This document shows positions 9,327-59,673 of a stretch of DNA of 64,000 nt, in pieces; position 1 is the stretch's first letter; each line of letters opens with the position of its first letter. Where the stretch lies: positions 434,327 through 498,326 of the forward strand of contig CAVWUT010000006.1 in NCBI GenBank assembly GCA_963758285.1, read 5' to 3'. A program made the position numbers and the translations under genes. The notes below the pieces were generated by a model that searched no databases, was not told the DNA's origin, and saw only the letters and a list, made by a program, of their open reading frames with translations. The stretch is from Terriglobia bacterium. Its GTDB lineage: Bacteria > Acidobacteriota > Terriglobia > Terriglobales > Acidobacteriaceae.

Positions 9327-9596
9327 ATGTGCCGGAATATCAAAACCCTATTTAACTTCGATCCGCCGGTCACTGAGGACGAAGTGCGGGCGGCTTCGCT
9401 GCAGTTTGTGAGGAAGATCACCGGCTTTAACAAGCCGTCGAAAGCCAATGAGAGCGCGTTTCTGGCTGCGGTCGATGAAGTAGCCGGCGTCTCGATGCGC
9501 CTTCTTCGTTCGCTCGAAACCACGGCGCCGCCGAAGAATCGTGAAGAAGAAGCGGCCAAGGCGAGAGCTCGCGCCGCCGAGCGATTCGGAGATTGA
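9327..9596 (+). CDS. DUF2277-family small protein
   Basis: 89 aa starting MCRNIKTLFNFDPPVTEDEVRAASLQFVRKITGF, a very characteristic DUF2277 N-terminus. Confidence 0.75.
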   Translation: MCRNIKTLFNFDPPVTEDEVRAASLQFVRKITGFNKPSKANESAFLAAVDEVAGVSMRLLRSLETTAPPKNREEEAAKARARAAERFGD

Positions 9597-9629
9597 GTCA
9601 TCCGGAGCCTCGAGGGTGGGGAAGTTTAC

Positions 9630-10103
9630 TTACTTCTGAGACCGATCAGGCCACAGATGCGTAACAGCCAGCGCCACCGCGATGCCTAGTGAAACCTCGA
9701 TGAAGCGATGCAAAGCCACGATCCACGGTGGTCGGTTGTGCGAGATCAATAAGATGATGGTCAGCGTAATCGCCGCAAAACGGTAAGCGCCGCGCAGTCG
9801 AAGCAGCGTGCACACCGCCCCGCATAGAAATATGGACGTTGCATAGACCAGCACACCGCTACTGGTGAAAAAGGTGGCGATCAAGGCTCCCAGCGCCGCG
9901 CCCAAAGCTGTTCCGGCAAAGCGCTGCCACGCCACGGTCCGGGGGTTGATGGTCGATTGGATGATCACGATGGCGGAAATCGGCGCCCAGTAGAACTCGG
10001 GAAGCTTCAGAAGGCGAGCCAGCAGCAAGGAAGCGACGGCCGCGACCGTGGTCCGTGCCGCGTCGATGATGGTTTCAGGCAGCGGCGTGGATGTGGTTGC
10101 CAT
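9630..10103 (-). CDS. small FUSC/ArAE-like membrane protein
   Basis: Four hydrophobic helices; LKLPEFYWAPISAIVIIQ resembles the FUSC-type N-terminal module. ATG 10103 preferred over the ORF-track start 10187. Confidence 0.55.
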   Translation of the reverse strand: MATTSTPLPETIIDAARTTVAAVASLLLARLLKLPEFYWAPISAIVIIQSTINPRTVAWQRFAGTALGAALGALIATFFTSSGVLVYATSIFLCGAVCTLLRLRGAYRFAAITLTIILLISHNRPPWIVALHRFIEVSLGIAVALAVTHLWPDRSQK

Positions 10104-10330
10104 GGTCAGAGTGTGGTGGCGCAGGCTGCGGGTCCATGCTAACTCGGAAGGGTGCAGCGGCCAAGCGGATCGTACGGAGCTGTTCACAGTAGCACAGTTC
10201 GGAAATTGTCCTCCCGAGCGGAGAAATCCGGTTCGCTTGCCAAACCGGATGTCGGAGCCGAGGGATCTGCCGGAATGCTTGCAAAAGCGCCAAGACTAGT
10301 ACACCCTCGATTGCAGCTTATCCTTTTATC

Positions 10331-10798
10331 ATGCCCGATCCGACGGAGGAACTCGACCGATGCCTTGCGGTGATCACAGCGACCTTGGCCCATCAAGACC
10401 CACTAACGTTGTCCCACGTCGAGGCGCAGCTTCGTGAGCCGAAACTGACGGCGTGGACGGCCAAACAGAGGTTTAAGTCTTTGCTGAAACTGGCAGCCGC
10501 GCACCGCGGGCGCGGTCAGCTTGGCCGCCTCCGAGCAGCCTTGATGCTGGGCGCGACCTCATTTGGGGCTGACTTCGTTGAGGCAGTGGAACGCGGTGCC
10601 GTGCTCTTGTCAGATGGCACGAAGAAATTCCGCCAGTTTCTTCAACATTTCGACGGCGAAGTTCGGAACGTCCGACGCTCCGGGTTGGCGGTTCTTGGAA
10701 GGTCGGCTCCAGACATATATCGCGTACGACCAGTTAGTTGCCGCCGCTGCCGCCAGCGAGCGAGGTGCGTTGCCCCTGCTATTGGGTTCGCCCGGTGA
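10331..10798 (+). CDS. hypothetical; probably the true N-terminus of the following gene, separated by a frame change
   Basis: The first 110 or so aa look protein-like (MPDPTEELDRCLAVITATLAHQDP...FRQFLQHFDGEV). The Arg/Cys-rich tail does not. Overlaps the next ORF by 236 nt in another frame. Confidence 0.4.
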   Translation: MPDPTEELDRCLAVITATLAHQDPLTLSHVEAQLREPKLTAWTAKQRFKSLLKLAAAHRGRGQLGRLRAALMLGATSFGADFVEAVERGAVLLSDGTKKFRQFLQHFDGEVRNVRRSGLAVLGRSAPDIYRVRPVSCRRCRQRARCVAPAIGFAR

Positions 10799-12587
10799 GG
10801 CAATAAGGAAGGTGCTCGTATTGGCGCACTTGCGTTTCCTGAGCTATATGGATTATTCGCTGCCTTCCGCCATTCGGGATTGGCTAGAGGGATTCGGGCC
10901 ACCCGAGGAGTTTGCAAGCATTGCGTCGCTGCTGGTTGCCGTTGCCAATAAGCACAAGCCTCTTGCTTCGATCGACTTTGTTCTCCCCCTGGCTTCGGAC
11001 ATTGCAAGCGCGGAGATGCGAGCCCTTATGGAATATGGGCGAATATCACACCAGAGCTACGAGGTATCCAAGGATATTTCCATCTTCGGCTACGGACTCG
11101 AGGCTCATCGAGGAGGATCTGCTTCACAGGTGTTCTATTTGCGTCCCCCGACCCCGGAGTTCGAATACGCAATGCGTTTGGGATTTATCCGGTCACAGGT
11201 TGGTCGATCAAAGGCCAGGATGGACGCAACACTCGGCCTGCCTGTCCGTCCCATGTCGATCCTTGGGGCGGCGGAGGTATTTGCCGCCCGTCTGCGCGAT
11301 AGAATCTGCGAACTTAAGGATGGAGGCTCGGATTGGAGACGCATTGTCCTCAAGTTCCCAGCTATTCCCGAATTGTACCGGGGCGTCCTGTCCGGCGGAT
11401 TCTACGAAGACTTCGCGGAGCAAGAGGAACTTGGCCTAGATTTCCTAGCTCCGTTGAGTCGACGGGGTGAGCCACAGATACAACTCACGGACCGGCTAGA
11501 CATCGCGACTTTCCTCAGGATCTGGCGGCTATTGCGCTTTCTCTGCTTCGTGGACATCTGTGCTGTTCGATCGTTCGAGAATATGGATCCCTCGACTCTT
11601 TTCAACTCCGTTCTGCGAATTGCCAAGGAGAAGGACTTGGTTGCGCTCGTCGCTTCCATGGGCATTAAGGAGGAGGAAATCAGCGAATTCTTAAGGCTTG
11701 TTGCGGCGGACACGCGGCGCCTCGGGTACCTAGATATTCAGTACCGCCCGTTTCTCAGGCTCGCGCCCAGCACGCTTGGAGGGTATACCAGTCCGCCAGA
11801 AATTCTCCATGTACCGGCTCTTGTTGGGTTTGCGAACGTGCTGCGCAACGTTCAGTCAGCAAATCAGCTTCGATTGCCTCGAAATGCCGAGCTCTTCGTC
11901 GAAGCTGTCGCCGATCTATTGAGCAGACATTTCAGTAAGGTCACGGTAAATCGGAGAGTAAAGTCAAAGGTCGAGAATACGGACATAGACGTGGCAGTGC
12001 TGGCGGACAAAACGCTCTACCTGTTCGAATGCAAGCACTCAGTGCCCCCGACCGGATCGCACGAAATGCGCAACGTCTGGGAGGACGTCGAAAAGGGCGT
12101 GCGGCAGCTAGAGACGGCGCTACGCTTGCTTGCCGATCGCGCTCGGTTGCGCGACTATCTGACGGGATGGTTTCCGGGAGTGACGGACCGGGACACTGCG
12201 GACGTCAGCATTGTGCCGTGCGTGATCTGCTCGCACAGAATTTTTGGAGGTTTGTGTCACGCAGGCGTCCCGATAAGGGACTTCTCGTCTCTGGCCAAGC
12301 TCACCCAGGACGGCGTCGTGGGGCTAGGCGCTATGAGTGATACCGAACTGGTATTGCACCGATTCCGGGTTACCAGAAGGGAGAAGTTCTCAGCGGAAGA
12401 TCTAGACGACTACCTCAGCGCCGATTCCAAGTTTTTCGCTATGTTCGCGCCGTTCATGCATCCTGTGTCCAGGCTGGCGAGATGCGCCGACGTGTCTGTT
12501 GCACGTGAGACATATGTTTACGAAGTCGATTCGGAAGAATGGATATTTGCACATGGAGTCGCTCGGATTTACCCGGCTCGAAGATGA
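10563..12587 (+). CDS. large uncharacterised protein with C-terminal PD-(D/E)xK (NERD/restriction-endonuclease-like) motif
   Basis: Long ORF with spot GC of 48-53% against about 60% for neighbours. Motif DIDVAVLADKTLYLFECKHS at 11982-12035 (D...ExK). No other domain recognised. First ATG clear of the overlap is 10848. Confidence 0.7.
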   Translation: MGLTSLRQWNAVPCSCQMARRNSASFFNISTAKFGTSDAPGWRFLEGRLQTYIAYDQLVAAAAASERGALPLLLGSPGEAIRKVLVLAHLRFLSYMDYSLPSAIRDWLEGFGPPEEFASIASLLVAVANKHKPLASIDFVLPLASDIASAEMRALMEYGRISHQSYEVSKDISIFGYGLEAHRGGSASQVFYLRPPTPEFEYAMRLGFIRSQVGRSKARMDATLGLPVRPMSILGAAEVFAARLRDRICELKDGGSDWRRIVLKFPAIPELYRGVLSGGFYEDFAEQEELGLDFLAPLSRRGEPQIQLTDRLDIATFLRIWRLLRFLCFVDICAVRSFENMDPSTLFNSVLRIAKEKDLVALVASMGIKEEEISEFLRLVAADTRRLGYLDIQYRPFLRLAPSTLGGYTSPPEILHVPALVGFANVLRNVQSANQLRLPRNAELFVEAVADLLSRHFSKVTVNRRVKSKVENTDIDVAVLADKTLYLFECKHSVPPTGSHEMRNVWEDVEKGVRQLETALRLLADRARLRDYLTGWFPGVTDRDTADVSIVPCVICSHRIFGGLCHAGVPIRDFSSLAKLTQDGVVGLGAMSDTELVLHRFRVTRREKFSAEDLDDYLSADSKFFAMFAPFMHPVSRLARCADVSVARETYVYEVDSEEWIFAHGVARIYPARR

Positions 12588-12743
12588 ACGTAGGAAACTG
12601 AACGGTCCGATGATGGCTGAGGATATAGAGCGCGAACTGGCGTCGAAGAGACCCGCAGCGGATGACGGGTCAGGCGCGCCGCCGTGAACGGAGAGGGCTC
12701 CCGGCGCTGTCTTGTAGGATTGAGAGTGTCCGACCCACACCAA

Positions 12744-12785
12744 CAAAAAACCCCACCCTAGCGCACAGAACGCGCTAGGATGGGG
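12744..12785 (-). terminator. Rho-independent terminator of groESL
   Basis: Minus strand CCCCATCCTAGCGC-gttctgt-GCGCTAGGGTGGGG followed by TTTTTTGTTGG, about 50 nt after the groEL stop. Confidence 0.8.
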
Positions 12786-12833
12786 CACCCTTCAGATCTG
12801 CTAGCTACTAACTACCAGCTACTAGCTACTCGC

Positions 12834-48415: not shown

Positions 48416-48778
48416 ATGAATGTGCGACGCATCAAGACCTACACCGGCAATCAGGGCTATGTGTACGAATACTACTTCGTCGGGAAGCGTTCCGCACTTC
48501 CCGGCGATGCCGAATCAGCAGCGACGGAGTACATTTTCGATGTGAGTACGGACCGCAAGACCAAGTTCGCGGTCAGCATTTTTCTGCTGGACAAAGCTGT
48601 GAAAACCTGGTCGGCAAGTCACGGCCGGACGCTCAGCGACGCCGAGCAGTACGGGGCAGTGAAAATGAGGCTGTTCCAGGCGTTCGATGAGGTCGAGAAT
48701 ATGCAAGCCGACGGACGCCGGTTGGACCTCCATGCCGAAGCGTTGGAGGAGGTGCTGGCGAGGCTGGGCATTGACTGA
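48416..48778 (+). CDS. hypothetical 120-aa protein
   Basis: GAGGTGG RBS before ATG 48416. Protein-like MNVRRIKTYTGNQGYVYEYYFVGKR... The ORF-track ORF 47876..48778 is its out-of-context 5' extension over galT. Confidence 0.5.
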   Translation: MNVRRIKTYTGNQGYVYEYYFVGKRSALPGDAESAATEYIFDVSTDRKTKFAVSIFLLDKAVKTWSASHGRTLSDAEQYGAVKMRLFQAFDEVENMQADGRRLDLHAEALEEVLARLGID

Positions 48779-48962
48779 GTCCGTTGCAGAAAGGCCAGAG
48801 GACTTTGCCGGAGATCGCAAGGCTAAAACTGGGGACCCCGCCGTTGTGATCTCCGTCACACGGCCCAGTGATAAGGCCCGCAGTCTTCGGCCTCGCCGGC
48901 GCGGCAGACTATAATCACGCGGTGGGGGAGAAGTTTTACCCAGGAAGGTAACAAGCTTCATC

Positions 48963-49778
48963 ATGTCTATACTGTGGTTGCGAGTAGCGCTGGGTTGTTA
49001 CGCCGTCGGCCTGCTGTATGCGTTGGTGGCGCTGACCCGGATTAGCGATCTCCTGAGCCGCCTGGCTCTGCACGCTGCCTACCTGGGTATGGTCTTCCAT
49101 TTTGTTTCGCTGGCCGAGGCTTTCCTTAGTTCAAGCCAGGTCGCCTTGGCTTCCGCCCACAACGCGGAATCCGTGCTTGGCTTTCTTATCATGGTCGTGT
49201 TCATGCTGGTGTATGGCGTGTACAAGACGACGGCCCCGGGGATTATCGTATTTCCGGTTGTTTTCTTGCTGACTTTCATCTCGGCCACCGGCGAGAAGCC
49301 ATTCCTGGTAACCTCATCCGGTCTGCATTACGGTTGGCTTTTCGCACACATTGCTTTGATCTTTACCGGCTACGCTGCCCTGATCCTCAGTTTCTGCGCC
49401 AGCGTACTTTACCTGATCCAGGAACGCTCGCTGAAATCGAAACGTCCGACCGGCATTCTGGCTTTGCTGCCCGCACTGGAAACCATCGACGAGATCGGTT
49501 TCCGCTCCCTGCTCTTAGGTTTTCCGTTTATGACCCTGGGCTTGATCGCGGGCTCAGTGGTTGCCCAGGCAAAATTTGGCCGTGTGGACCTGCTGGATCC
49601 TAAGATTCTGCTCTCGCTGCTGATGTGGGCGGTGTATCTGATTCTGCTGTACACCCGCTGGAGCGCCGGCTGGCGTGGCCGCCGGGCTGCCTACCTGGCC
49701 GCGGGGGCGTTTGTCTTCGCCCTGATTGCCTGGTTCGCTAACTATTTCAGCGCCATTCACAGGTTTGCACGCTCATGA
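48963..49778 (+). CDS. CcsA/HemX-like cytochrome c assembly family membrane protein
   Basis: 8 hydrophobic helices. Stop overlaps the hemA start (ATGA), the same gene pairing as hemA-hemX in Bacillus though in the opposite order. Confidence 0.65.
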   Translation: MSILWLRVALGCYAVGLLYALVALTRISDLLSRLALHAAYLGMVFHFVSLAEAFLSSSQVALASAHNAESVLGFLIMVVFMLVYGVYKTTAPGIIVFPVVFLLTFISATGEKPFLVTSSGLHYGWLFAHIALIFTGYAALILSFCASVLYLIQERSLKSKRPTGILALLPALETIDEIGFRSLLLGFPFMTLGLIAGSVVAQAKFGRVDLLDPKILLSLLMWAVYLILLYTRWSAGWRGRRAAYLAAGAFVFALIAWFANYFSAIHRFARS

Positions 49779-51070
49779 CCTTTCAGCTCATCGGGGTGAA
49801 CCACAAGAGTGCGCCGGTTGAAGTGCGGGAACGCCTTGCGATCCCCGAGTCACATCTGCCGGACGCCTTGAAGCGGCTCGTCCAGCATCCAGGGGTCAAT
49901 GAGGGGATCATCGTCAGCACTTGCAACCGTGTAGAACTGCTGGCCGGAGCACAGAATGGGGGCGCGGACCTGCGCAAATTTCTGGGCGATTATTTCCAGA
50001 TGGACCGTACGCAGATCGATCCTCATCTTTACGAATATCGTGAGCAGGACGCGGTGCGGCATTTGTTCCGGGTAACGTCCAGCCTGGATTCCATGGTGGT
50101 GGGCGAAGCGCAGATTCTCGGCCAAGTGAAGGAAGCTTACGCCACCGCGCGGGCGGTAGGTGCGGTTCATTCGCAGTTGGATCAACTGCTGACTCGCGCC
50201 TTTGCCGTTGCCAAGCGAGTGCGCACGGAAACGGCGGTGGGCTCCTCCGCGGTCTCGGTGGCTTCGGTGGCGGTGGAACTCGCCAAGAAAATCTTCGGCT
50301 CGCTCCAGGGCAAGAACGTCTACCTTGTAGGAGCGGGCAAGATGACCGAACTGGCAGCCCGCCATCTGCTGGCTCATGGCGCCGGATCGATCTTTGTGGC
50401 GAATCGGACCTACGACCGCGCCATCCGTCTGGCGCAAAAGTTTAACGGCCAAGCCATCGAATTCAACCGGCTGTATGATACATGCGACCGCGCCGACATC
50501 GTCATCACTTCCACCGGTGCGCCGCACGCCATCTTCCGCCGCGAACATGGCGAGCAGTTCCTCAGCCGCCGAAAAAACCGTCCCATGTTCTTCATCGATA
50601 TTGCCGTGCCGCGCGATGTCGATCCGGAGATGAACAAGCTGGACGGCATTTTCGTTTATGACATTGACGACTTGCAGCAGGGCGTGGCCAGCCATGTGGC
50701 CGACCGAAAGAAGGAGGCCGAGCGAGCGGACCAGATTATCAACACCGAAGTCGAACGCTTCCAGGCTCGCCTGCAAACGCTCGACGTGGTTCCCACGATC
50801 GTTTCTCTGCAGGACCACCTGGAGACCATTCGCCAGGCGGAAATCGACCGGGTGCGCGGGCGTCTGGGCCAACTGTCTCCCGAGCAACACCTCGCGGTGG
50901 AAACTCTCACTCGCGGCATCGTAAACAAGATCATGCACACCCCCATCAGCACCCTGAAAACGGCCGCGCGCGAGTCCGAAGCTACTACGGTGGTCGAGGT
51001 GGTCCGCCGCCTCTTCAATCTGCAACAGAAGAATGCGTCCGATGACCCCGGCTCCGGAGGACGCAACTGA
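49775..51070 (+). CDS. hemA: glutamyl-tRNA reductase
   Basis: [16 protein letters not shown]...STCNRVEL and the NAD-binding [12 protein letters not shown]. Confidence 0.95.
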
Positions 51071-52005
51071 TGGCCTGTCTGCGCATCGGTTCTCGCGGAT
51101 CGCAACTCGCACTTTGGCAGGCCCATCACATCAGCGCTCTTCTGCGTGGGCGGGGCCACGAAGTCGAACTGGAAATCATCAAGACGACCGGCGACAAGAT
51201 TCTCGACGTTGCCCTGGCCAAGGTGGGCACGAAGGGCATGTTCACCAAAGAGATTGAAGAAGCGCTCGCCGAGGGCCGCGTCGATCTCGCGGTGCATAGC
51301 CTGAAGGACCTCCCGACTCAACTTTCGCCGGGGTTCGAGATTGCCGCCATCACCGCCCGTGAAAATCCTCGCGACGTGTTCTGCTCAGTCCACCACTCCA
51401 GAATTGAAGACTTGCCGCGAGGCGGGCGGGTCGGCACCAGCAGTCTTCGCCGACAGGCGCAATTGAAGGCATTGCGCGCCGATCTCAAGATTCACCCCCT
51501 CCGCGGCAATGTCGACACCCGTCTCCGCAAGCTGGAACAGGGCGAATATGACGCAATTATCCTGGCTGCAGCCGGGTTGAACCGGCTCGGCAAGACTGAA
51601 CTGGTGAAGCAAGTGATTCCCGCTGAGGTAATGTGCCCCGCGGCCGGACAGGGTGCGCTGGGATTAGAAATTCGCGCCGGCGACGCGGCCATCCGACAGC
51701 ATTTGGTCTTTCTCGATGATTCTGCCGCGCGCGTTTCCACCACCTGCGAGCGAGCAACCCTGAATAAATTGGGCGGAGGCTGCCAGGTCCCCATCGGAGC
51801 GTTTGCCGAGGTGCGAAACGGCCGCGTGTATCTAAATGCCATCGTAGCTCATCCCGACGGATCGAAGGTGTTGCGGGAATCGCTTGACGGTGTGGACCCT
51901 ATCGCACTCGGCGAAGCGGTCGGCGAAACCTTGCTGCGACGCGGCGGCGAAGCCATCCTGGAAGAAGTCTACGGGAAGGAAATAGCGGTTCCGCAGCAAC
52001 CGTGA
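51070..52005 (+). CDS. hemC: hydroxymethylbilane synthase (porphobilinogen deaminase)
   Basis: [13 protein letters not shown]..., [19 protein letters not shown]. Start overlaps the hemA stop (TGATG). Confidence 0.95.
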
Positions 52006-52069
52006 ACGTGTGTCGCGCGGAAAGCGTGTGGCGTAGACACTCCTGTCCGCGCAGGCGGAAATTCAACAG

Positions 52070-52923
52070 ATGAAGAGCCCCACGGAACTGCCGCTTGCTG
52101 GCCTCCGCATCCTGGTTGGCCGCGCCCGCCATCAAGCCAGCGCATTGTCTTGTGATCTTCGCAAGCTGGGCGCGGAGGTCATCGAGATTCCCTTCATTGA
52201 GATTCGCAAGTCGCGATCTTACAAGCCTCTCGACGCAGCTCTGAAGAACCTGGCCGGTTACGATTGGCTCATTCTGACCAGCGTGAACGGTGTGGACGCC
52301 CTTTGGGATCGCCTTCGGAAGCTTCATCTCGCCAGGCGGCACCTGCGGCACCTGAAAATTGCGGCGATTGGCCCGGCTACCAGGAAGGCGATAGAACAGC
52401 ACGGATTGAAGGCCAATGTGGTCCCTGAGGAGTACGTGGCCGAATCCGTCGTCAGGAGCTTGCGGAACAGGGTGAAAGGGAAGCGAGTGCTACTGGCGCG
52501 CGCCAAGCTGGCCCGTGATGTCATTCCCGCGAACTACGTAAGCTGGGCGCACAGGTGGATGTGGTCGAGGCCTACGAAACCGTAATCCCGCCATCTTCCC
52601 GCCGTCGGTTGCGCGCCGTTTTGAAGACTCCCAATCGCCGTCTGGATGTGATCACGTTTACCAGTTCTTCGACCGCGCGAAACTTTCTCGCACTCCTTGC
52701 CGGCAAGGCGCCCCAGCGGCAAACCGCGCGCGGCCGCAAGCTTGCGGGAATGAAATTGGCTTCGATTGGTCCGGTAACCTCTTCAACGCTGCGCCAGCTG
52801 GGTCTTCCGGTCCACATCGAGGCCCGAGAACACACCATCCCCGGCTTGGTTGCGGGCGATCGTCCGCGCCGCGCACGTTCGCTAAGGAATTCTGGCGGCT
52901 CGAACAGAGCATATACAGCCTAA
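52070..52923 (+). pseudogene. hemD: uroporphyrinogen-III synthase, frame-disrupted as sequenced
   Basis: ORFs 52070..52585 and 52555..52923 join as ...ARDVIPA / ELRKLGAQVDVVEAYETV... if one nt is added near 52529-52531. Confidence 0.85.
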
Positions 52924-53019
52924 GAGGCTTGAAACGCTTGTTTCCAACAAGATGTTTTTGGCGTGGCTGAAAGCCGCGCCCTTTCAAATCACAGCCGTTG
53001 ACGCACGCCGGAGAGTTTC

Positions 53020-55000
53020 CTATTCCGTCAGCGTGCAGCCGCAGTCCGCCGGGGGTACATGAGCCCTCAGAAACTCCGAAACTCGCTTGTAGGCGTCGAT
53101 CTGATTCTCAACCTTGGCGAAACCGTGGCCTTCGTTTTCGTACACCTTGTACTCAACCTTGCCGCCGCGTTTGTTGATTGCATCGACGACCTGCTGCGCT
53201 TCGCTGTCCGGGCATCTGGGATCATGCTCGCCGGCCAGTAACAGCAGCGGCGCCCTGATCTGATCCGCAAAGAAGATCGGCGAACGTCGCGATACCGTTC
53301 CTTGTTTTTTTCGGGATCACCCATGGTCGCCAGGTCCGACTGTTGCAGCACCGGGTCCTCGTGTTGAATCTCGGTGAACCAGTTCACGAAGGGCACGATG
53401 GGCACGCCCGCCGCCCACACATCCGGAGCTTTGGTGACGCCCATCATCGTGAGGTAGCCGCCATAGCTTCCGCCCATGAGCGCAATCTTGCTCGGATCAA
53501 GATATCCGGTTTGCTTGATAAAGTCCGCCGCGGCCAGCACATCCAGCAAATCTCCGCCGCCCATATCGAACAGATTCGCCTGCTGGAAGTCCTTGCCGTA
53601 GCCAGTCGATCCACGATAGTTCGGGGCAATCACCATGTAACCCTGGTTCACAATGTGCTGCACAAACCGGTTAAACGAATTCACCGTTTGCACGGCCGGC
53701 CCACCGTGCACATAGACCACGGCAGCGTTCTTGCCATTGCGAATCATGTTGTAGGGCACGTAGACAAAAGCTGAGATCGTCCATTTGCCGTCGCGGCTGG
53801 GATAGTGAACCAGAAATGGTTCAACCATCGCTTCCGAGCGTACACCGCCCACCAGCGAGTTCGTAAGCTGCTGCGACTTATTGGCTCCGATTTGATAAAC
53901 CCACAAATCGCCGGGCGCGGTCGGGCCCGTGTGGTAGTAGAGCAAACGAGTGCTGTCCTTGCTGAAAGCGGAAGGGGTGCCGTGGGGGCTCATTGACGCC
54001 CTGACCCAAGTCTAGCCGCGTACTCTTGCCAGTCGCCAGCTCGTGCAGGTAAGTGTCAGTATTGCCCTCCACATTCGCCGACCAGGTCACGGACCTCCCA
54101 TCGGGCGAAAAGTTGGCTCCGTTGATCTCCCACTTATCCTTGGTCAACCAGGAGATTTTCTTCGTGGGAATATCGAGCAGTCCGACGTTGTCATGGCCGC
54201 TGGCATTGGACGTAATGAGCAACTTCGTTCCATCCGGCGACATGTCATTGGCGCGGTAAAGCGCTTCGCCGTCGTGAGGCGTCAGCAGCCTGCTCTGCCC
54301 GGCAGCCACCTCGGCGATGAAAATATTGGAATCCGTACCTTTCGCCTGCTCTTGGGTGTAGGCGATCCACTTGCCGTCACGCGACCAGATCGGATTTTCG
54401 TTCAGCTTGTCCGCCGGCGTGCCCGTGGTGATGTGCCGGGCCTCCCGCATCAGCATGTCATGAGACGTCAATTTCGTACACTGACGAAGTCTTCGGCTTT
54501 ACTGTGTAGGCGAGGTAGCGTGCGTCGGGCGACCAGCGCGGCGACTCCTCCGCGATTTCCCGCGTGTGGGTCAGGTTGACCACCCGGCCGTCTTTCGGTG
54601 AAACCAGAAAAATGTCCCACTGTTCGTCGCCGTCGTAGTCCGACATGTAGGCGATCCACTTGCTATCCGGCGACCACACGGGTTGCGTCTGCCGCTGGTC
54701 GCTGATGGTCAACTGCGTGGGCCAACCGCCATCCGCCGGCACCAGCCAGAGATTATTCCGGCCGCTGATGTTGCTGACGAACACGACGGTCTTGCCATCC
54801 GGCGACCACGATGCCGCACCAACCTGCCGGGTCATGTACAGGCGCTCGATCGACAGATTCTGCTGAAACTGTTCCACGTCCGCGTTCGGTTTGCTCGTAA
54901 TTTGCTTGGGATCGGTGATGGCTTCCGGAACAGGCCGAGTTTGGGCTGGAGCCAGCGTGGTCATGAATATGACGATAGCAAATGAGATGAGAGCGCGCAT
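53020..55000 (-). pseudogene. secreted S9 prolyl oligopeptidase-family peptidase with beta-propeller, three frame disruptions as sequenced
   Basis: Signal peptide from ATG 55000 and the nucleophile motif GGSYGGYLT. Frame changes near 54460-54500, at 53984-53990 (C5 run) and at 53284-53290. The C-terminus ...RSPIFFADQIRAPLLLLAGEHDPRCP...EFLRAH continues in a third frame to TAG 53022-53020. Confidence 0.85.
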
Positions 55001-55128
55001 GAGGGCTTGGAAAACTCTGAGATTACCTTGATCAGTTTTCAAATGGAAGTTTAGCAGAGCGGGCTGCCGGGTCCCGTCTGCGACCGATTTCGCTCGGGAA
55101 TTGCCCGAATTAAGATGCGGTGATCTGG

Positions 55129-55753
55129 CTACTTCGCCCGTTTGTGAATTTCCACCGTGCTCCAGGTCTTGTCGGCGGCGTGACAGATGCTCTCCAGCGG
55201 ACAATCGGAACATTTCGGTTTACGCGCGATGCACAGCTTGCGCCCGTGCCAGATGATCTGGTGCGCAAACAGGATCCACTTTCCAGGCGGGATCACCTTC
55301 ATCAGATCCCGCTCGATCTTTGACGGGTCAGTATTTCTCGTCAGCTCAAGCCGGCGCGAGATACGCGTGACATGGGTATCCACGACTACGTACCTTGCCG
55401 AACCACGTTCCCAGCAGGACATTGGCAGTTTTTCGGGCCACTCCGGGCAAGGTGAGCAGCTTATCCATCTCGTCCGGAATCTCGCCGCGAAACTCGCTGA
55501 CAATTTTCTTTGCGGCGCCAACAACGGACTTCGCTTTGTTACGAAAAAATCCGGTCGAATAAATATCCGGTTCAAGCTGTTCAGGTGTCAGCGCGGCAAA
55601 ATCCTTCACTGTCGGATATTTCCTGAACAGCTCAGGCGTCACTCGATTTACGGTTGCGTCGGTCGATTGCGCGGAAAGGATCGTTGCCACCAGCAGCTCC
55701 CATGGGCTCTGGTGAGTGAGCGCGCAGGTCGCATCGGGATAAAGCTGATCCAA
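55129..55753 (-). pseudogene. nth: endonuclease III, frame-disrupted as sequenced
   Basis: LLVATILSAQSTDATVN...LPGVARKTANVLLGTWFGK / VVDTHVTRISRRL...CIARKPKCSDCPLESIC, split near 55388-55396. A second shift near 55765 would give ...PERIARILQRLDQLYPDA. Confidence 0.85.
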
Positions 55754-55850
55754 TCGTTGGAGAATCTGGCTATCCGCTCCGGGGCGAGCGGATTGTAGCC
55801 CTTCGATTCGGCGCCGCGAACTGGCTTGGCTTTCTTTGGTTGCGGCGCAG

Positions 55851-55915
55851 GGACAGGCGTCCTCGCCCGTCCGCGGGTCGCAGGTTGAGCGCCTTTGGCG
55901 GACAGGAATGTCCGC
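55851..55915. repeat. two REP-like hairpins upstream of nth
   Basis: GGACAGGCG-tcct-CGCCCGTCC (55851-55872) and GCGGACA-ggaa-TGTCCGC (55898-55915). ORF 55648..55980 translates them. Confidence 0.5.
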
Positions 55916-56429
55916 GCCACACGTGCTTTCTCATGGCGTCCAGTCTTGGCCGGTTGTCGTGGAACTACCCCACGTGGCATCAGTTCATCTCCTGAGGTCC
56001 CAACGAGACCTAAATGTTAGCAGAACAGTGGCGGTTGACAATTGACGCCATGCTGGTAGCTAGGTAGTCTGAAGGTAGATTCTACAAAATTACTATGGCA
56101 GTGAAGTACCATTTAGACTCGGGCAGGTGTGGCGACAGGATGCCAGCGGTCAGGATTATCTCGTCACCAAGGTTTACAGCGAAGTCTTCAGTCAGTACGC
56201 CGTTTTACGGCCAGCCGAGGTGACCGCGCCCGACGCTCCCGCAGTACGCGTGAAGGTCTCGAAAAACACCAACGGTGTAGCTTGTCCGGATTCACATTTA
56301 CGCAGGAGGGTTCGTTCTAGTTCTCATGGAGACGTTGCTTGCAACGTGTCACGGTTGAAGATGCAGCCAGCTGCGTTGCTACGACTTTCGGCCATCGCCG
56401 CATGACGGAAAAAATCCTCGCTATTCTGT

Positions 56430-57029
56430 TTGTCTTCATCAAGTCAGTCATCGCCGCGACCGGCTATGGCGGACTTGCTCGTTCTCATGGCGATCGAGTC
56501 CGCCTGCATCCCGCTGCCCTCCGAGCTGATCATGCCGTTTGCCGGCTACCTGGTGTTTGAAGGCACAATGAGGCTGGTGTGGGTGGCCACCGCCGGCGCC
56601 ATCGGATGCAATCTCGGATCGCTGGTGGCCTACGAAATTGGCTGCTACGGCGGCCGCCCGCTGGTGGAAAAATATGGCCGCTGGATTCTGCTCAGCCACC
56701 GCGAACTCAACTGGGCCGACCACTTCTTCGCCCGCTGGGGATACCTGGCAGTATTCATTGCGCGCTTGCTGCCCGTGATCCGGACGTTCATTGCTCTGCC
56801 TGCGGGAATCGCGCGCATGCCCCGCGGGCGCTTTCACATATACACCTTTCTCGGATCATGGCCTTGGTGCTTTGGGCTGGCGTGGCTCGGCCTGAAGCTG
56901 GGCGAAAACTGGCGAGAGTTAGGCAAGTATTTCCACAAGTTTGACGCGGTCATCGGCGCGGTGCTGGCGCTGGGGATCATCTGGTTCGCCTGGTCGCATT
57001 GGCAGAACAGAATTAGCGCAGCAGAATAG
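56430..57029 (+). CDS. dedA: DedA-family membrane protein (N-terminus apparently displaced by a frame change)
   Basis: LMAIESACIPLPSELIMPFAGYLV... The typical N-terminus MTEKILAILFVFIKSVIAATGYGGL sits in another frame from ATG 56402, implying a shift near 56472-56482. Confidence 0.8.
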   Translation: MSSSSQSSPRPAMADLLVLMAIESACIPLPSELIMPFAGYLVFEGTMRLVWVATAGAIGCNLGSLVAYEIGCYGGRPLVEKYGRWILLSHRELNWADHFFARWGYLAVFIARLLPVIRTFIALPAGIARMPRGRFHIYTFLGSWPWCFGLAWLGLKLGENWRELGKYFHKFDAVIGAVLALGIIWFAWSHWQNRISAAE

Positions 57030-57048
57030 AAGTGACACAGACCATGAG

Positions 57049-57071
57049 GGGACAGGCGTCCTCGCCGCTCC
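57049..57071. repeat. degenerate GGGACAGGCG-family hairpin
   Basis: GGGACAGGCGTCCTCGCC is identical over 18 nt to the 55850 copy. Lies 20 nt after the dedA stop. Confidence 0.4.
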
Positions 57072-57105
57072 GGTTGGGCGTAGCCCGGAAGTTCAAGGAG
57101 GTCTT

Positions 57106-57551
57106 ATGAAGCGGTTCATCCTGGTATCGATCCTGCTGGCCTGCAGCACGCTGTTCGCATCGGCCCGAAGCGCTCCGGCCTGGTCGGGGGCCAGCCTTTC
57201 GTGGTCGAGTACTACTACAGGGCCAAGTGGGGGCATGCGGACGAATTTCTCAAACTGTTCAAGAAAAACCACTATCCCCTGCTCAAGAAAGAAGTCGAGA
57301 TGGGCCGCTTGATCAAGGTCTGGATGGATCAACCGCGCTACCACGCCACGGAAGACGGCCGCTGGGATTATCGCGTGACCATCGTCTTCACAAACGCTAC
57401 CGTGGCCAATGAACCGTTCGACGAAGACGCGCTGAAGAAGCAATTGTTCCCCGATCAGGAGACTTATCAGAAAGAAGAACAGCGCCGCTTCGAGATTCTC
57501 GATGCGCATTGGGATTTGCCGATCAAGACGGTCGAACTGGAAGCGAAATGA
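57106..57551 (+). CDS. small secreted protein of unknown function, frame-disrupted as sequenced
   Basis: Strong RBS AAGGAGG then ATG 57106 and signal peptide MKRFILVSILLACSTLFASA. The body (VVEYYYRAKWGHADEF..., ORF 57201..57551) is in another frame. One extra G in the G5 run 57186-57190 would join them. Confidence 0.6.
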
Positions 57552-58045
57552 GGGCGAGATCACTGTCATCAACCATCCATTGATTTGTAACACTCCAGCT
57601 TGATCTGGCGCAGGTCGGCACGTGAAAATCAAGACTGTCCGATGCGCCGCTGCTTCGGTTTTCCCCGGTTCGGACGATCTCCCACGAGTCCCATCCAATT
57701 GCTGGTTACTTTAGTGCGGGAACGTGACTTGCATCACATGGTCTTGTGAGGATGGAGTGCCGATACTAACGACAGGGCATGGTACGCAACATTGCCAAGC
57801 CCTGCTCTTTTTCAGGCCATACCCTGGGCTCTGCTGAAATCGAGCCGGAACCGCGCCTGCCGCTATGACAGTTGGCTGCAATGTTGGTATCGCTAGCGCT
57901 AAGGACAAGATTGTACCTCTGTTGCCCCATTTCGACCGGCTCAAGATCATTACCGACGTGTTTGGCGGCCTTCCGCCGCAGGCAGCGGGATCGATGCTAA
58001 CGCGATCCATCGGTCATAACGGCTCGTGCAGACGCGAAAGGCGAC

Positions 58046-58686
58046 ATGCCTGACAAGAAAGCCACAAGCGAGAGGATACTCAGGATGGCATTCACCGTCC
58101 TGATTGCTCTCTTGATGGGGATCGGCTACCTGGGGCTTAGCCGAATGAACCAAATCAATACCGATTTGAGCGATGTGCTAGGCAGGCACTGGCACCAAAG
58201 TGCGCTTGTCCCGCGAGGCACTCGCATACTCGAGCCGCAACAGTCGTATCACGATGGAACTTTTCCTTGTCAGGGATAAGGCGGAGATCGACTCCCTCCT
58301 GAAAAACAGGGTTGAGAATAGCCAACACATCTCAGCTCGAATCTCGAAGATCGAGAGTCAGTGCGATGGTCCGGAGGAGAAACAACTGCTCGCGGCTGTC
58401 AAAGATGCGAGAGCCCCATATGTCGCGAGCTACCTGCGTACCCTGCATTTGCTGGTGGATGAACACGACCCAGACGCGGCCAGAATCGTCATGGTCGGCG
58501 AATCGACGCCGGCATGCTCAAATATTCACTCGGCTTGGGAGGACTTCGCGCAATTCCAGATGGACGAGATTGAACAGAGCCGCCAGAGAGAGCAAGACGC
58601 GGTATGCCACGGCCCTGGTCTGGTCCGTGTTGCTGATCGGGCTGTCAGTGTTTGTCGGCAGCTTCGATGGCCTGTTCAACCGCTCC
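58046..58686 (+). pseudogene. N-terminal fragment of a 4HB_MCP-type sensor (chemoreceptor or sensor kinase), frameshifted and truncated
   Basis: TM1 AFTVLIALLMGIGYLGLSRMNQI, a four-helix-bundle-like body, and TM2 ATALVWSVLLIGLSVFVGSF, spread over three frames (58046, 58200, 58312). No HAMP or signalling domain follows. Confidence 0.55.
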
Positions 58687-58990
58687 GGCCCGAATTATCG
58701 CGAGGTTGTCGGCCGTTTCACGGTACGCCGCACCAACGGCGATCTTCTCGGCGTGATGAAGCCGAGTTGCCGTACCTTTCCGGCGCGCAACATGGCGACC
58801 ATCGAAGCCGCGTTGATGCGGCAGGGCATGAGCCAGATCTATCTTTCGCTGGACGATCCCGCCCCTGATGGCACTGTTCCGGTCCGGCTCTATTCAAGCC
58901 GCTGGTGTTGTTGATCTGGCTCGGCGCGCTGATCATGTTCGTCGGCGGCGGCCTGTCGCTGTCCGACCGGAGGCTGCGCGGTGGGCGCGC
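58687..58990 (+). pseudogene. ccmF: 3' fragment of cytochrome c heme lyase subunit CcmF
   Basis: GPNYREVVGRFTV...ATIEAAL...SQIYLSLDDP...VRLYSS / LVLLIWLGALIMFVGGGLSLSDRRLR matches the conserved CcmF C-terminus. One frame change near 58900. No upstream CcmF body. Confidence 0.6.
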
Positions 58991-59223
58991 CGAAACCAAC
59001 CCGAGCGAGCGTCGCCACGCAGAACTCGCATGTCCCTCAAATGCCCAGGCGCAGTTTGGAATTGATCTAGCTCTAAAGTCCGAGCGCCTGAGCCTCAAAT
59101 CATTGCGTCGAGCATTGCCCGATGCGACTGCGCGTATGGAGTAACATTTCAAAAGCGTGGAGGCTCTCGATGAGACAATTGCTGTCCTCCGGCTTTCGCC
59201 CAGTATTGAGGCCCGAGGCGGAG

Positions 59224-59673
59224 ATGTTGCTGCGATTGCGCAGTCCAAACGACGATACGGCTAAGTTGAGAACAAAGCTGCGCGAAGCCGGACTCCGTCC
59301 GACACGAACGCGCCTGGCGCTTAGCGCACTTTTGTTCTCCAAAGGTGATCGCCACGTCACCGCGGAGCAGCTTTTTGAAGAGGCGAACCAGGCTAGGGTG
59401 TCGGTGTCGCTCGCTACGGTCTACAACACCCTCCACCAATTCACCCAAGTTGGTTTTCTACGACAAGTGGCAATTGACGCTTCAAAATCTTATTTTGACA
59501 CAAATACTACCGAACATCATCACTTCTATATCGACGATCGGCATGAGCTTATGGATATTCCCCCGACCAATGTGATCATCGGCAAAGCTCCTGTGCCGCC
59601 AGATGGATACGAGATCGCCCGCATCGATGTACTGGTGCGTTTGCGCCGCAAGGCGGATAACCCGCCAGTTTGA
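59224..59673 (+). CDS. irr: Fur-family regulator of the Irr (iron response regulator) type
   Basis: GLRPTRTRLALSALLFSKGDRHVTAEQLFEEA...VSLATVYNTLHQFTQVGFLRQV...TEHHHFY...PPDGYEIARIDVLVRLRRK closely follows rhizobial Irr, including the HHH motif. ATG 59170 is an alternative start. Confidence 0.75.
   Translation: MLLRLRSPNDDTAKLRTKLREAGLRPTRTRLALSALLFSKGDRHVTAEQLFEEANQARVSVSLATVYNTLHQFTQVGFLRQVAIDASKSYFDTNTTEHHHFYIDDRHELMDIPPTNVIIGKAPVPPDGYEIARIDVLVRLRRKADNPPV

Follow-up and report, generated by a model that had tools for sequence, protein, structure and literature searches.

A candidate stand-alone PD-(D/E)xK nuclease gene, interrupted by two frameshifts, between groEL and a FUSC-like gene in a Terriglobia bacterium

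The gene and its insertion between groEL and a FUSC-like gene

A 64,000-nt stretch of a Terriglobia bacterium contig (CAVWUT010000006.1; hereafter the window, whose coordinates are used below) carries, between groEL and a gene for a FUSC/ArAE-like membrane protein, a plus-strand gene for a candidate single-gene nuclease. The gene occupies 10331-12687, and three reading frames are needed to read it, with +1 shifts at ~10667 and ~12546. The list of plus-strand open reading frames (ORFs) contains 10331-10798 (155 aa) overlapping 10563-12587 (674 aa), and a short ORF at 12499-12687 in another frame. Joining 10331-10663, 10665-12545 and 12547-12687 gave a repaired protein of 784 aa, which aligned end to end with 22 homologues (761-922 aa) at 38-65% identity. 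Because the N-termini of these homologues match frame A and their C-termini (...EWIAHMSSLGFVRLEDERKKW...) match the third frame, we delimit the gene as 10331-12687 with two +1 corrections. The first-pass annotation of this DNA had rightly placed a large plus-strand coding region between the FUSC-like gene and the groEL terminator, but had ended it at 12587; the second +1 shift near 12546 was missed, and the true stop lies at 12685-12687.

On the left, the FUSC-like gene (9630-10187, minus strand; Pfam FUSC_2 E 3.3e-19, ArAE_1 E 3.3e-13) is divergent from the nuclease gene and lies outside the inserted gene. The divergent intergenic region upstream of the nuclease gene (10188-10330) presumably holds the promoter; no match to the sigma-70 consensus was found within it. 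Frame A (10331-10663; codons 1-111, MPDPTEEL...HFDGEV) aligned to the N-termini of the 22 homologues and is continuous with frame B in the homologue P0034. At the first frameshift site (10664-10668), alignment with the contig L011 and three-frame translation place an extra A at 10667 (CGGAACG versus CGGACG). Frame B (10665-12545) encodes repaired residues 113-738, which span the N-terminal region (helical/mixed), the nuclease core and the greater part of the beta-rich C-terminal domain. The second site (12541-12547) has one extra base in ATATTTG (GAATGGATA-T-TTGCACATG), where homologues read on as ...EWI-[AL]HM[ES]SLGF. Frame C (12547-12687, stop at 12685-12687) supplies the last 46 conserved residues (LHMESLGFTRLEDERRKL...GAPP) and aligned to the C-terminus of every full-length homologue. 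On the right, the insertion is bounded by the groEL intrinsic terminator (12750-12786, minus strand), a 17-bp stem followed by a T run. A 128-aa antisense ORF (12402-12788, minus strand), called as a gene on the Logan contig, overlies the 3' end of the nuclease gene; it is without support and probably spurious.

We surveyed this junction in 80 metagenome loci with FUSC-like homologues, eight of which also contain groEL. Four loci (L030, L039, L046 and L077) have the two genes 0.2-0.7 kb apart and a fifth (L048) has them ~1.2 kb apart; the nuclease gene is missing from all five. A 4.6-kb gap in L052 (2520-7076) holds a pair of HEPN_RiboL-PSP and GmrSD_N (DUF262) genes, a DUF4440 gene and a dehydrogenase gene, and a 2.75-kb gap in L075 (3379-6082) holds two ORFs without a Pfam match. 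As the gaps of relatives lack the gene, the window gene is an insertion. The groEL/FUSC junction varies among related soil Acidobacteriota, and in Terriglobales-like members of the phylum it acts as a variable site for defence cargo. The cluster containing the window's groEL includes a Terriglobales metagenome-assembled genome, which hints at the host lineage. Around 10188-12743 we saw no convincing repeats, direct or inverted, that could represent attachment (att) sites or insertion sequence (IS) ends, the window contains no tRNA gene, and no integrase gene was found around the nuclease gene. The first-pass annotation had placed the gene between the dnaK block and groESL. Neither dnaK nor a DUF2277 gene was near any of the 80 loci, and adjacency to the dnaK block is therefore lineage-specific. 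The window's own DUF2277 gene (9327-9596, plus strand; 89 aa, Pfam E 2.5e-36), located between dnaK and the FUSC-like gene, is part of a 102-member cluster at 90% identity.

A foreign origin had been proposed from spot counts of 29, 32 and 29 G+C per 60 nt. These counts were exact, but low GC by itself is weak evidence of foreign origin: the gene has 56.9% GC versus 58.5% for the window, its frame B has 63.1% GC at third codon positions versus 68.4 +/- 5.6% for 48 long ORFs, and of the window's 60-nt segments, 7.4% contain no more than 29 G+C. The synonymous codon usage of the nuclease gene was nevertheless the worst fit to the pooled usage among 26 long genes. A homologue in a Thermoanaerobaculia metagenome-assembled genome (MAG) has 53% GC, in a locus of 64% GC with native-looking flanking genes of 68-74%. 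A foreign origin of the nuclease gene is plausible.

Frame breaks and assembly quality

For an independent comparison we used contig L011 (3,233 bp), from the Logan assembly of run ERR12036785, which covers this locus, FUSC-like gene and nuclease gene included, and encodes P0034 (751 aa). Global alignment with window positions 9547-12780 showed only three differences. The first, C/T at 10267, lies upstream of the nuclease gene. The second and sole indel is the window's extra A at 10667, the first frameshift. The third is an A in the window versus a G in L011 at 12072, so that codon 12072-12074 reads AAC (Asn581) in the window and GAC (Asp) in the independent contig, where P0034 reads HEMRDVWE. 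Position 581 is an almost invariant Asp in the family, with Glu in two members (REIWE).

The first-pass annotation had located a frame switch within 10650-10690 and attributed it to a 1-nt indel, and both points hold, with frame A running to 10663 and frame B starting at 10665. Since the homologues and the independent contig read straight through, the internal start at ATG 10848 that had been offered in its place is wrong and not needed. We checked the quality of the assembly by aligning window positions 48722-58657 (9.9 kb) with a related ENA assembly (L097). The two were 99.53% identical; they differed by 23 mismatches and by 20 indel events, of which almost all were single-base and outside long homopolymers. 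A ratio of indels to substitutions near 1 indicates consensus errors rather than evolution. A gene for an S9-type prolyl-oligopeptidase (PD40 repeats and Peptidase_S9; 52600-55213, minus strand) is split over four frames in the window, whereas the same gene is intact in L097 (10001-11980, 659 aa). As the first frameshift is absent from near-identical L011 and the window assembly is indel-prone, it most likely reflects an assembly error or a minor variant among strains. The inactivation that had been suggested for it cannot be read from it, given the many 1-nt indels elsewhere, and frameshifts in this assembly should not be taken as biology without read-level support.

The second frameshift is common to the window and the Logan contig, P0034 also ending in ...EEWIFAHGVARIYPARR. 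It is probably real because two assemblies share it, although their read sets may not be independent. If real, the shift would replace the last 46 residues with 13 unrelated ones, with loss of the invariant G745 and the near-invariant R748 and D751. Besides the two shifts, the gene contains no in-frame stop, and all catalytic residues are intact. The nuclease copy in the window may be impaired, as its conserved last 46 residues are replaced. Programmed frameshifting was rejected as an explanation of the breaks, as neither the homologues nor, at the first site, the near-identical contig is shifted.

It is conceivable, if somewhat doubtful, that the gene is a decaying pseudogene, a dead remnant of an acquired nuclease gene in which both frameshifts and the Asp-to-Asn change are real. 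In favour of decay, one gene carries two +1 shifts, the second of them shared by two assemblies and costing 46 conserved residues, G745 among them. Of the three differences between the window and the near-identical contig, moreover, two are damaging and fall inside the gene. A 66%-identical copy in the Acidobacteriaceae MAG MFD05512.bin.2.36 (L002, 10202-12296) is likewise broken into two ORFs (349 and 385 aa) that overlap, which reflects either another assembly indel or independent decay. However, the indel load over the 9.9-kb comparison and the split S9 peptidase, the continuous frame at the first site in the independent contig, and the lack of any further in-frame stop together with the intact catalytic residues all argue against decay. 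A pseudogene here would be compatible with the explanation that we favour at the level of the family.

Two further genes toward the end of the window were noted during the assembly comparison. An intact gene in L097 (4434-6914, 826 aa) encodes a sensor with 4HB_MCP_1, PAS and EAL-type domains. Its counterpart in the window (~56100-58870) appears fragmented: several indels fall in this stretch, and ORF 58200-58868 covers just positions 59-178 of 4HB_MCP_1. A FUR-family ORF (59122-59673, plus strand) matches only profile positions 1-84 of 121 and may be a truncated or frameshifted gene. Homology to L097 breaks off abruptly at both ends of 48722-58657, perhaps because synteny is broken there or because the strains differ.

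Catalytic core, protein family and predicted structure

The first-pass annotation had singled out a nuclease motif at 11982-12035. The peptide DIDVAVLADKTLYLFECKHS indeed lies at 11982-12041, with 12035 the last base of the Lys codon, and an alignment of 23 sequences places the PD-(D/E)xK catalytic motif TDIDVAVLADKTLYLFECKHS at 11979-12041. The codons of the putative catalytic residues are 11982-11984 (D551), 11988-11990 (D553), 12027-12029 (E566) and 12033-12035 (K568). T550, D551, D553, E566, C567, K568 and Q592 are invariant in the 23 sequences. The acidic residues and the (D/E)-x-K that this superfamily carries on beta-2 and beta-3 are all present in the window copy, and a structure prediction with AlphaFold2 (AF2) places a nuclease core at the same site, which bears out the PD-(D/E)xK reading. 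The motif aligns with that of AF1548 and with the D-x-D...E-S-K motif of the defence protein Upx. Measured to the true C-terminus, the core lies ~216 aa from the end, not ~180 aa as had been estimated. Invariant positions are also found in the first 530 residues (FEY 277-279, D468-x-QY and RNVQ 505-508), indicating that the whole protein is constrained and not the nuclease alone.

The gene had been described as an orphan. A search with the 674-aa ORF instead returned 33 homologues, the full-length ones of 761-922 aa (mostly 770-800 aa), none of which carries a name or a Pfam domain. An exhaustive profile search extended the family to 754 cluster representatives at E <= 1e-3, of which 611 passed E <= 1e-10; most are 700-800 aa long and match along their whole length. 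All 754 clusters (50% identity) are annotated as 'hypothetical protein'. A close homologue is present in four of 185,579 species-representative genomes, all Acidobacteriota MAGs. Regarding a phage origin, tblastn against 50,697 phage records gave no match and a structural search of BFVD returned nothing significant.

None of the members tested reached a Pfam, NCBIfam or PADLOC threshold. An NCBIfam search of the nuclease protein gave no meaningful match, and no Pfam family scored above threshold in the N-terminal 500 aa. NERD (PF08378) matched the window ORF with 16.6 bits (E 0.012), below the gathering cut-off of 22.1 bits. It was the best Pfam match in 11 of 23 members, always below threshold (best E 4.7e-4) and over ~70-110 of the 784 residues. 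Ten distant members gave no significant NERD match either, nine having none and one a match at E 0.0076 (17.2 bits). On the window protein, PADLOC gave weak matches to 'viperin-associated NERD' and to CARF-associated PD-(D/E)xK nucleases. Distant members matched the PADLOC model PDLC02906, 'viperin-associated NERD', at E 9e-9 to 3e-8 over ~200 profile positions, and these matches support kinship with NERD at the level of the superfamily. The suggestion of a Shedu-like nuclease is not supported, as neither Pfam nor PADLOC gave a match to Shedu (SduA, DUF4263) at E <= 1.

The AF2 model of homologue P0003 (predicted local distance difference test (pLDDT) 85.7, predicted template modelling score (pTM) 0.84) consists of a long helical region, a mixed alpha/beta region, a nuclease core (509-630) and a beta-rich C-terminal domain. 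The core has the order alpha-beta-beta-beta-alpha-beta, with a helix at 509-528, strands at 533-541, 546-555 and 558-565, a helix at 573-597 and a strand at 623-630. In a Foldseek search with the full-length model, Upx (9wuf) was the sole significant match (E 8.5e-5, probability 1.0, 694 columns), with 12% identity and template modelling (TM) scores of 0.27/0.19. The other full-length matches all had E > 0.1. Those of appreciable probability were to PD-(D/E)xK nucleases, namely VC1899, Can2, Cdn1, AF1548, McrC and Hjc (probability 0.33-0.89) and Cas4; Bax1 and the R2 endonuclease followed at lower probability, and unrelated folds such as CNOT1 and prestin were scattered through the list at low probability. 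We also modelled window residues 113-531, with the catalytic strands excluded (pLDDT 82.3). Upx was again the top match (E 3.4e-3, probability 1.0, 428 columns, TM 0.32/0.14, root-mean-square deviation 11.7), and the remaining matches were spurious helical membrane proteins at probability <= 0.21. The first-pass annotation had recognised no family in this region. Although this holds for Pfam above threshold, the region is not featureless: the models predict a confident fold, for which Upx is the only credible structural neighbour.

Genomic neighbourhoods and comparison with known defence systems

We examined the contexts of homologues at ~10 loci, a qualitative sample from which no statistical enrichment is to be read. 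The retron reverse transcriptase RT-Toprim I-C (E 5e-227) lies immediately upstream in L001, with Uma2/PDC-S03 downstream; L007 has a Drt8 reverse transcriptase (E 5e-124) and an integrase, L004 a CAP12/Pycsar TIR protein, L093 nSTAND-WD40 and TIR genes between integrases, and L010 genes for HATPase_c_3, a methyltransferase, an integrase, IS110 and a resolvase. Distant homologues (~25% identity), annotated as hypothetical, are carried by conjugative plasmids or megaplasmids of Sphingomonadales, Rhizobiaceae and Cupriavidus. An intact member of the family is WP_211151898.1, from Novosphingobium resinovorum pHR1a. One of the plasmid homologues (L096) adjoins a complete type I restriction-modification (R-M) system on the opposite strand, and another adjoins DUF4238 and HEPN genes. 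None of these contexts shares synteny with the window, and they have no conserved partner gene in common. Defence-gene neighbours nevertheless recur in unrelated genomes, which amounts to guilt by association. Together with the absence of the gene from the groEL/FUSC junction of relatives, these contexts fit the earlier proposal of single-gene defence or mobile cargo. A small conserved downstream partner was considered and rejected, as the ~70-aa ORFs in L005, L008 and L010 are unrelated in sequence and one of them is an IS110 fragment.

The homologues in L008 and L009 lie in a PRTRC/SSB/Rad52 element. The element, found in two independent metagenomes (L008 1-7776 and L009), comprises a PRTRC cassette (ThiF, Prok-E2, Prok_Ub and PRTRC_E), SSB, Rad52, DUF932 and a helicase.

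Carriage on such elements, in integrase-flanked islands and on conjugative plasmids could mean that the nuclease serves the mobile elements and not the host, for example in the maintenance of plasmids or integrative and conjugative elements, in recombination or entry exclusion, or as an addiction toxin. This is rather improbable, as no transfer, replication or recombinase gene is constantly associated and the directly adjoining genes are usually other defence genes. The window has no repeats, tRNA or integrase around the gene, and the phage genomes gave no match.

A solitary restriction endonuclease, whether modification-dependent and of type IV or a type II orphan that has lost its methyltransferase, would have the same PD-(D/E)xK core. 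In L010, the only examined locus with an adjacent methyltransferase gene, an N6_N4 methyltransferase gene lies directly upstream of the homologue, and weak Foldseek matches to McrC point the same way. However, a methyltransferase gene is not adjacent in the window or in most loci. The window gene is bordered by the FUSC-like gene and groEL, with no cognate methyltransferase gene as an R-M system would require, and the earlier statement that no methyltransferase, ATPase or helicase gene is adjacent there was correct. In L094, an unrelated methyltransferase gene lies ~2.3 kb off on the opposite strand. No Pfam or PADLOC match to Mrr, McrBC or GmrSD was obtained, nor is a modified-base reader domain recognisable, and we hold a restriction enzyme to be highly improbable.

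Upx is a stand-alone defence protein of ~1250 aa whose C-terminal PD-(D/E)xK domain degrades single-stranded DNA in the 3'-5' direction (PMC13099982, PMC13601566). Its activator has been reported as gp16 (PMC13099982) and as the large terminase (PMC13601566). SeUpx (PDB 9wuf) has domains at 1-515, 516-714 and 715-1272, with E1176 and K1178 (PMC13099982). Like Upx, the window protein is encoded by a single gene without a partner, in a family found in defence islands, and has a large non-catalytic region followed by a PD-(D/E)xK core with D-x-D...E-x-K (DVDVFAL...IESK in acidobacterial Upx, DIDVAVL...FECK in the window protein). There is no evidence in the window family for a counterpart of the N-terminal second nuclease of Upx. 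The family might be a compact, hitherto unrecognised Upx relative, a one-protein immune sensor-nuclease common in soil bacteria and on conjugative plasmids. In that case, binding of a conserved phage protein, such as terminase, to the ~530 N-terminal residues would free the NERD nuclease. We regard this as unlikely; if true, it would be a new named defence system, and the sensing architecture of Upx would be much more widespread and modular than thought. The resemblance to Upx gives a reasonable clue to mechanism but does not demonstrate membership.

Other stand-alone or sensor-coupled nucleases were also compared. The catalytic core of the window protein aligns with NERD. ZwsA (Zowangsin) of Pseudomonas aeruginosa is a stand-alone NERD RNA endonuclease of ~80 kDa, encoded in genomic islands, with NERD residues E535, D567, E580 and K582 and a further domain C-terminal to NERD (bioRxiv 10.64898/2026.04.06.716636). 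An RNA-cutting effector of this type, targeting phage RNA and not DNA, is quite improbable here, although the two proteins are alike in size (~86 kDa here), in the position of the core, in its residues (D553, E566 and K568) with the same D-to-E spacing of 13 (D-x13-E-x-K), and in the extra domain after the core. This likeness is by description only, not by sequence, and the D-x13-E-x-K spacing is common in NERD domains. Moreover, Pfam found none of the VHS, DUF647 and S4 domains reported for ZwsA, and there were no matches on Pseudomonas plasmids. A regular expression for the ZwsA catalytic positions gave only a coincidental match. With the CARF-associated PD-(D/E)xK effectors (Can2, Card1, VC1899/1xmx and Cdn1) the window family shares weak PADLOC matches to CARF_PDDEXK and Csx1 (E 1e-2 to 6e-5) and weak structural matches to their nuclease domains. 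In contrast to these effectors, it has no CARF or other known ligand-binding domain, the matches are confined to the nuclease core, and cyclase or CRISPR genes are not nearby.

Overall, we lean, by a narrow balance of probability, towards a model in which the locus is one horizontally acquired gene for a ~784-aa stand-alone nuclease, from a widespread and unnamed family of one-protein defence modules. The protein is a candidate member of an uncharacterised family of a well-known kind, the single-gene PD-(D/E)xK defence nucleases, for which there are many such candidates. In this model, a gene inserted in the variable spot between groEL and the FUSC-like gene would encode ~530 mostly helical N-terminal residues, a NERD-type core (D551/D553, E566-x-K568) and a beta-rich end of ~150 residues, acting as a one-protein module that counters phages or other mobile elements. 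The nuclease would be held off by the large non-catalytic region, which would sense a cue from the invader; metal-dependent cutting of nucleic acid would then either destroy the invader or stop the infected cell, as described for Upx. A single-gene defence nuclease, perhaps damaged in this copy, is a plausible reading of the gene.

Several observations weigh against this explanation. We infer the metal-dependent activity, the N-terminal sensing or regulation, the anti-phage function and the Upx-like logic, and a defence-island neighbourhood is association, not proof. The gene is interrupted in the window, and Asn replaces a near-invariant Asp in this copy. At ~780 aa versus ~1250 aa, the protein falls ~470 residues short of Upx, and its C-terminal domain differs: ~220 residues follow the core here versus ~95 in SeUpx, so that the N-terminal, middle and C-terminal domain order (NTD-MD-CTD) of Upx, with the nuclease at the extreme C-terminus, is not reproduced. 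The PADLOC Upx model PDLC02221 had no match in the window protein (E <= 1) or in distant members (E <= 0.01), whereas genuine acidobacterial Upx homologues do match it. A PDB profile search at E <= 10 did not return 9wuf, and hhalign against an Upx C-half profile, made from an acidobacterial Upx that we rebuilt from a frameshifted contig, aligned only a 65-column nuclease core, with the catalytic residues in register and a probability of 3.7%. The Foldseek TM-scores to Upx were low throughout (0.14-0.32).

If the family were active in defence, it would be a sizeable unannotated addition to the single-gene anti-phage nucleases, with at least 754 clusters, and would provide a shorter natural variant for dissecting how sensing is coupled to cleavage in Upx-type proteins.

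Comparison sequences for Upx were also sought. SeUpx, searched for through E. coli genomes, gave no match, a search with the N-terminal fragment of PbUpx gave fragments only, and hhalign against a single Upx sequence yielded only a spurious alignment. Upx homologues are present in Acidobacteriota too. A genuine one, 65% identical to the N-terminal part of PbUpx and split by a frameshift, lies on a 125-kb metagenome contig (L012, 5001-8710), where it is flanked by a phage integrase gene and an AIPR (abortive infection) gene.

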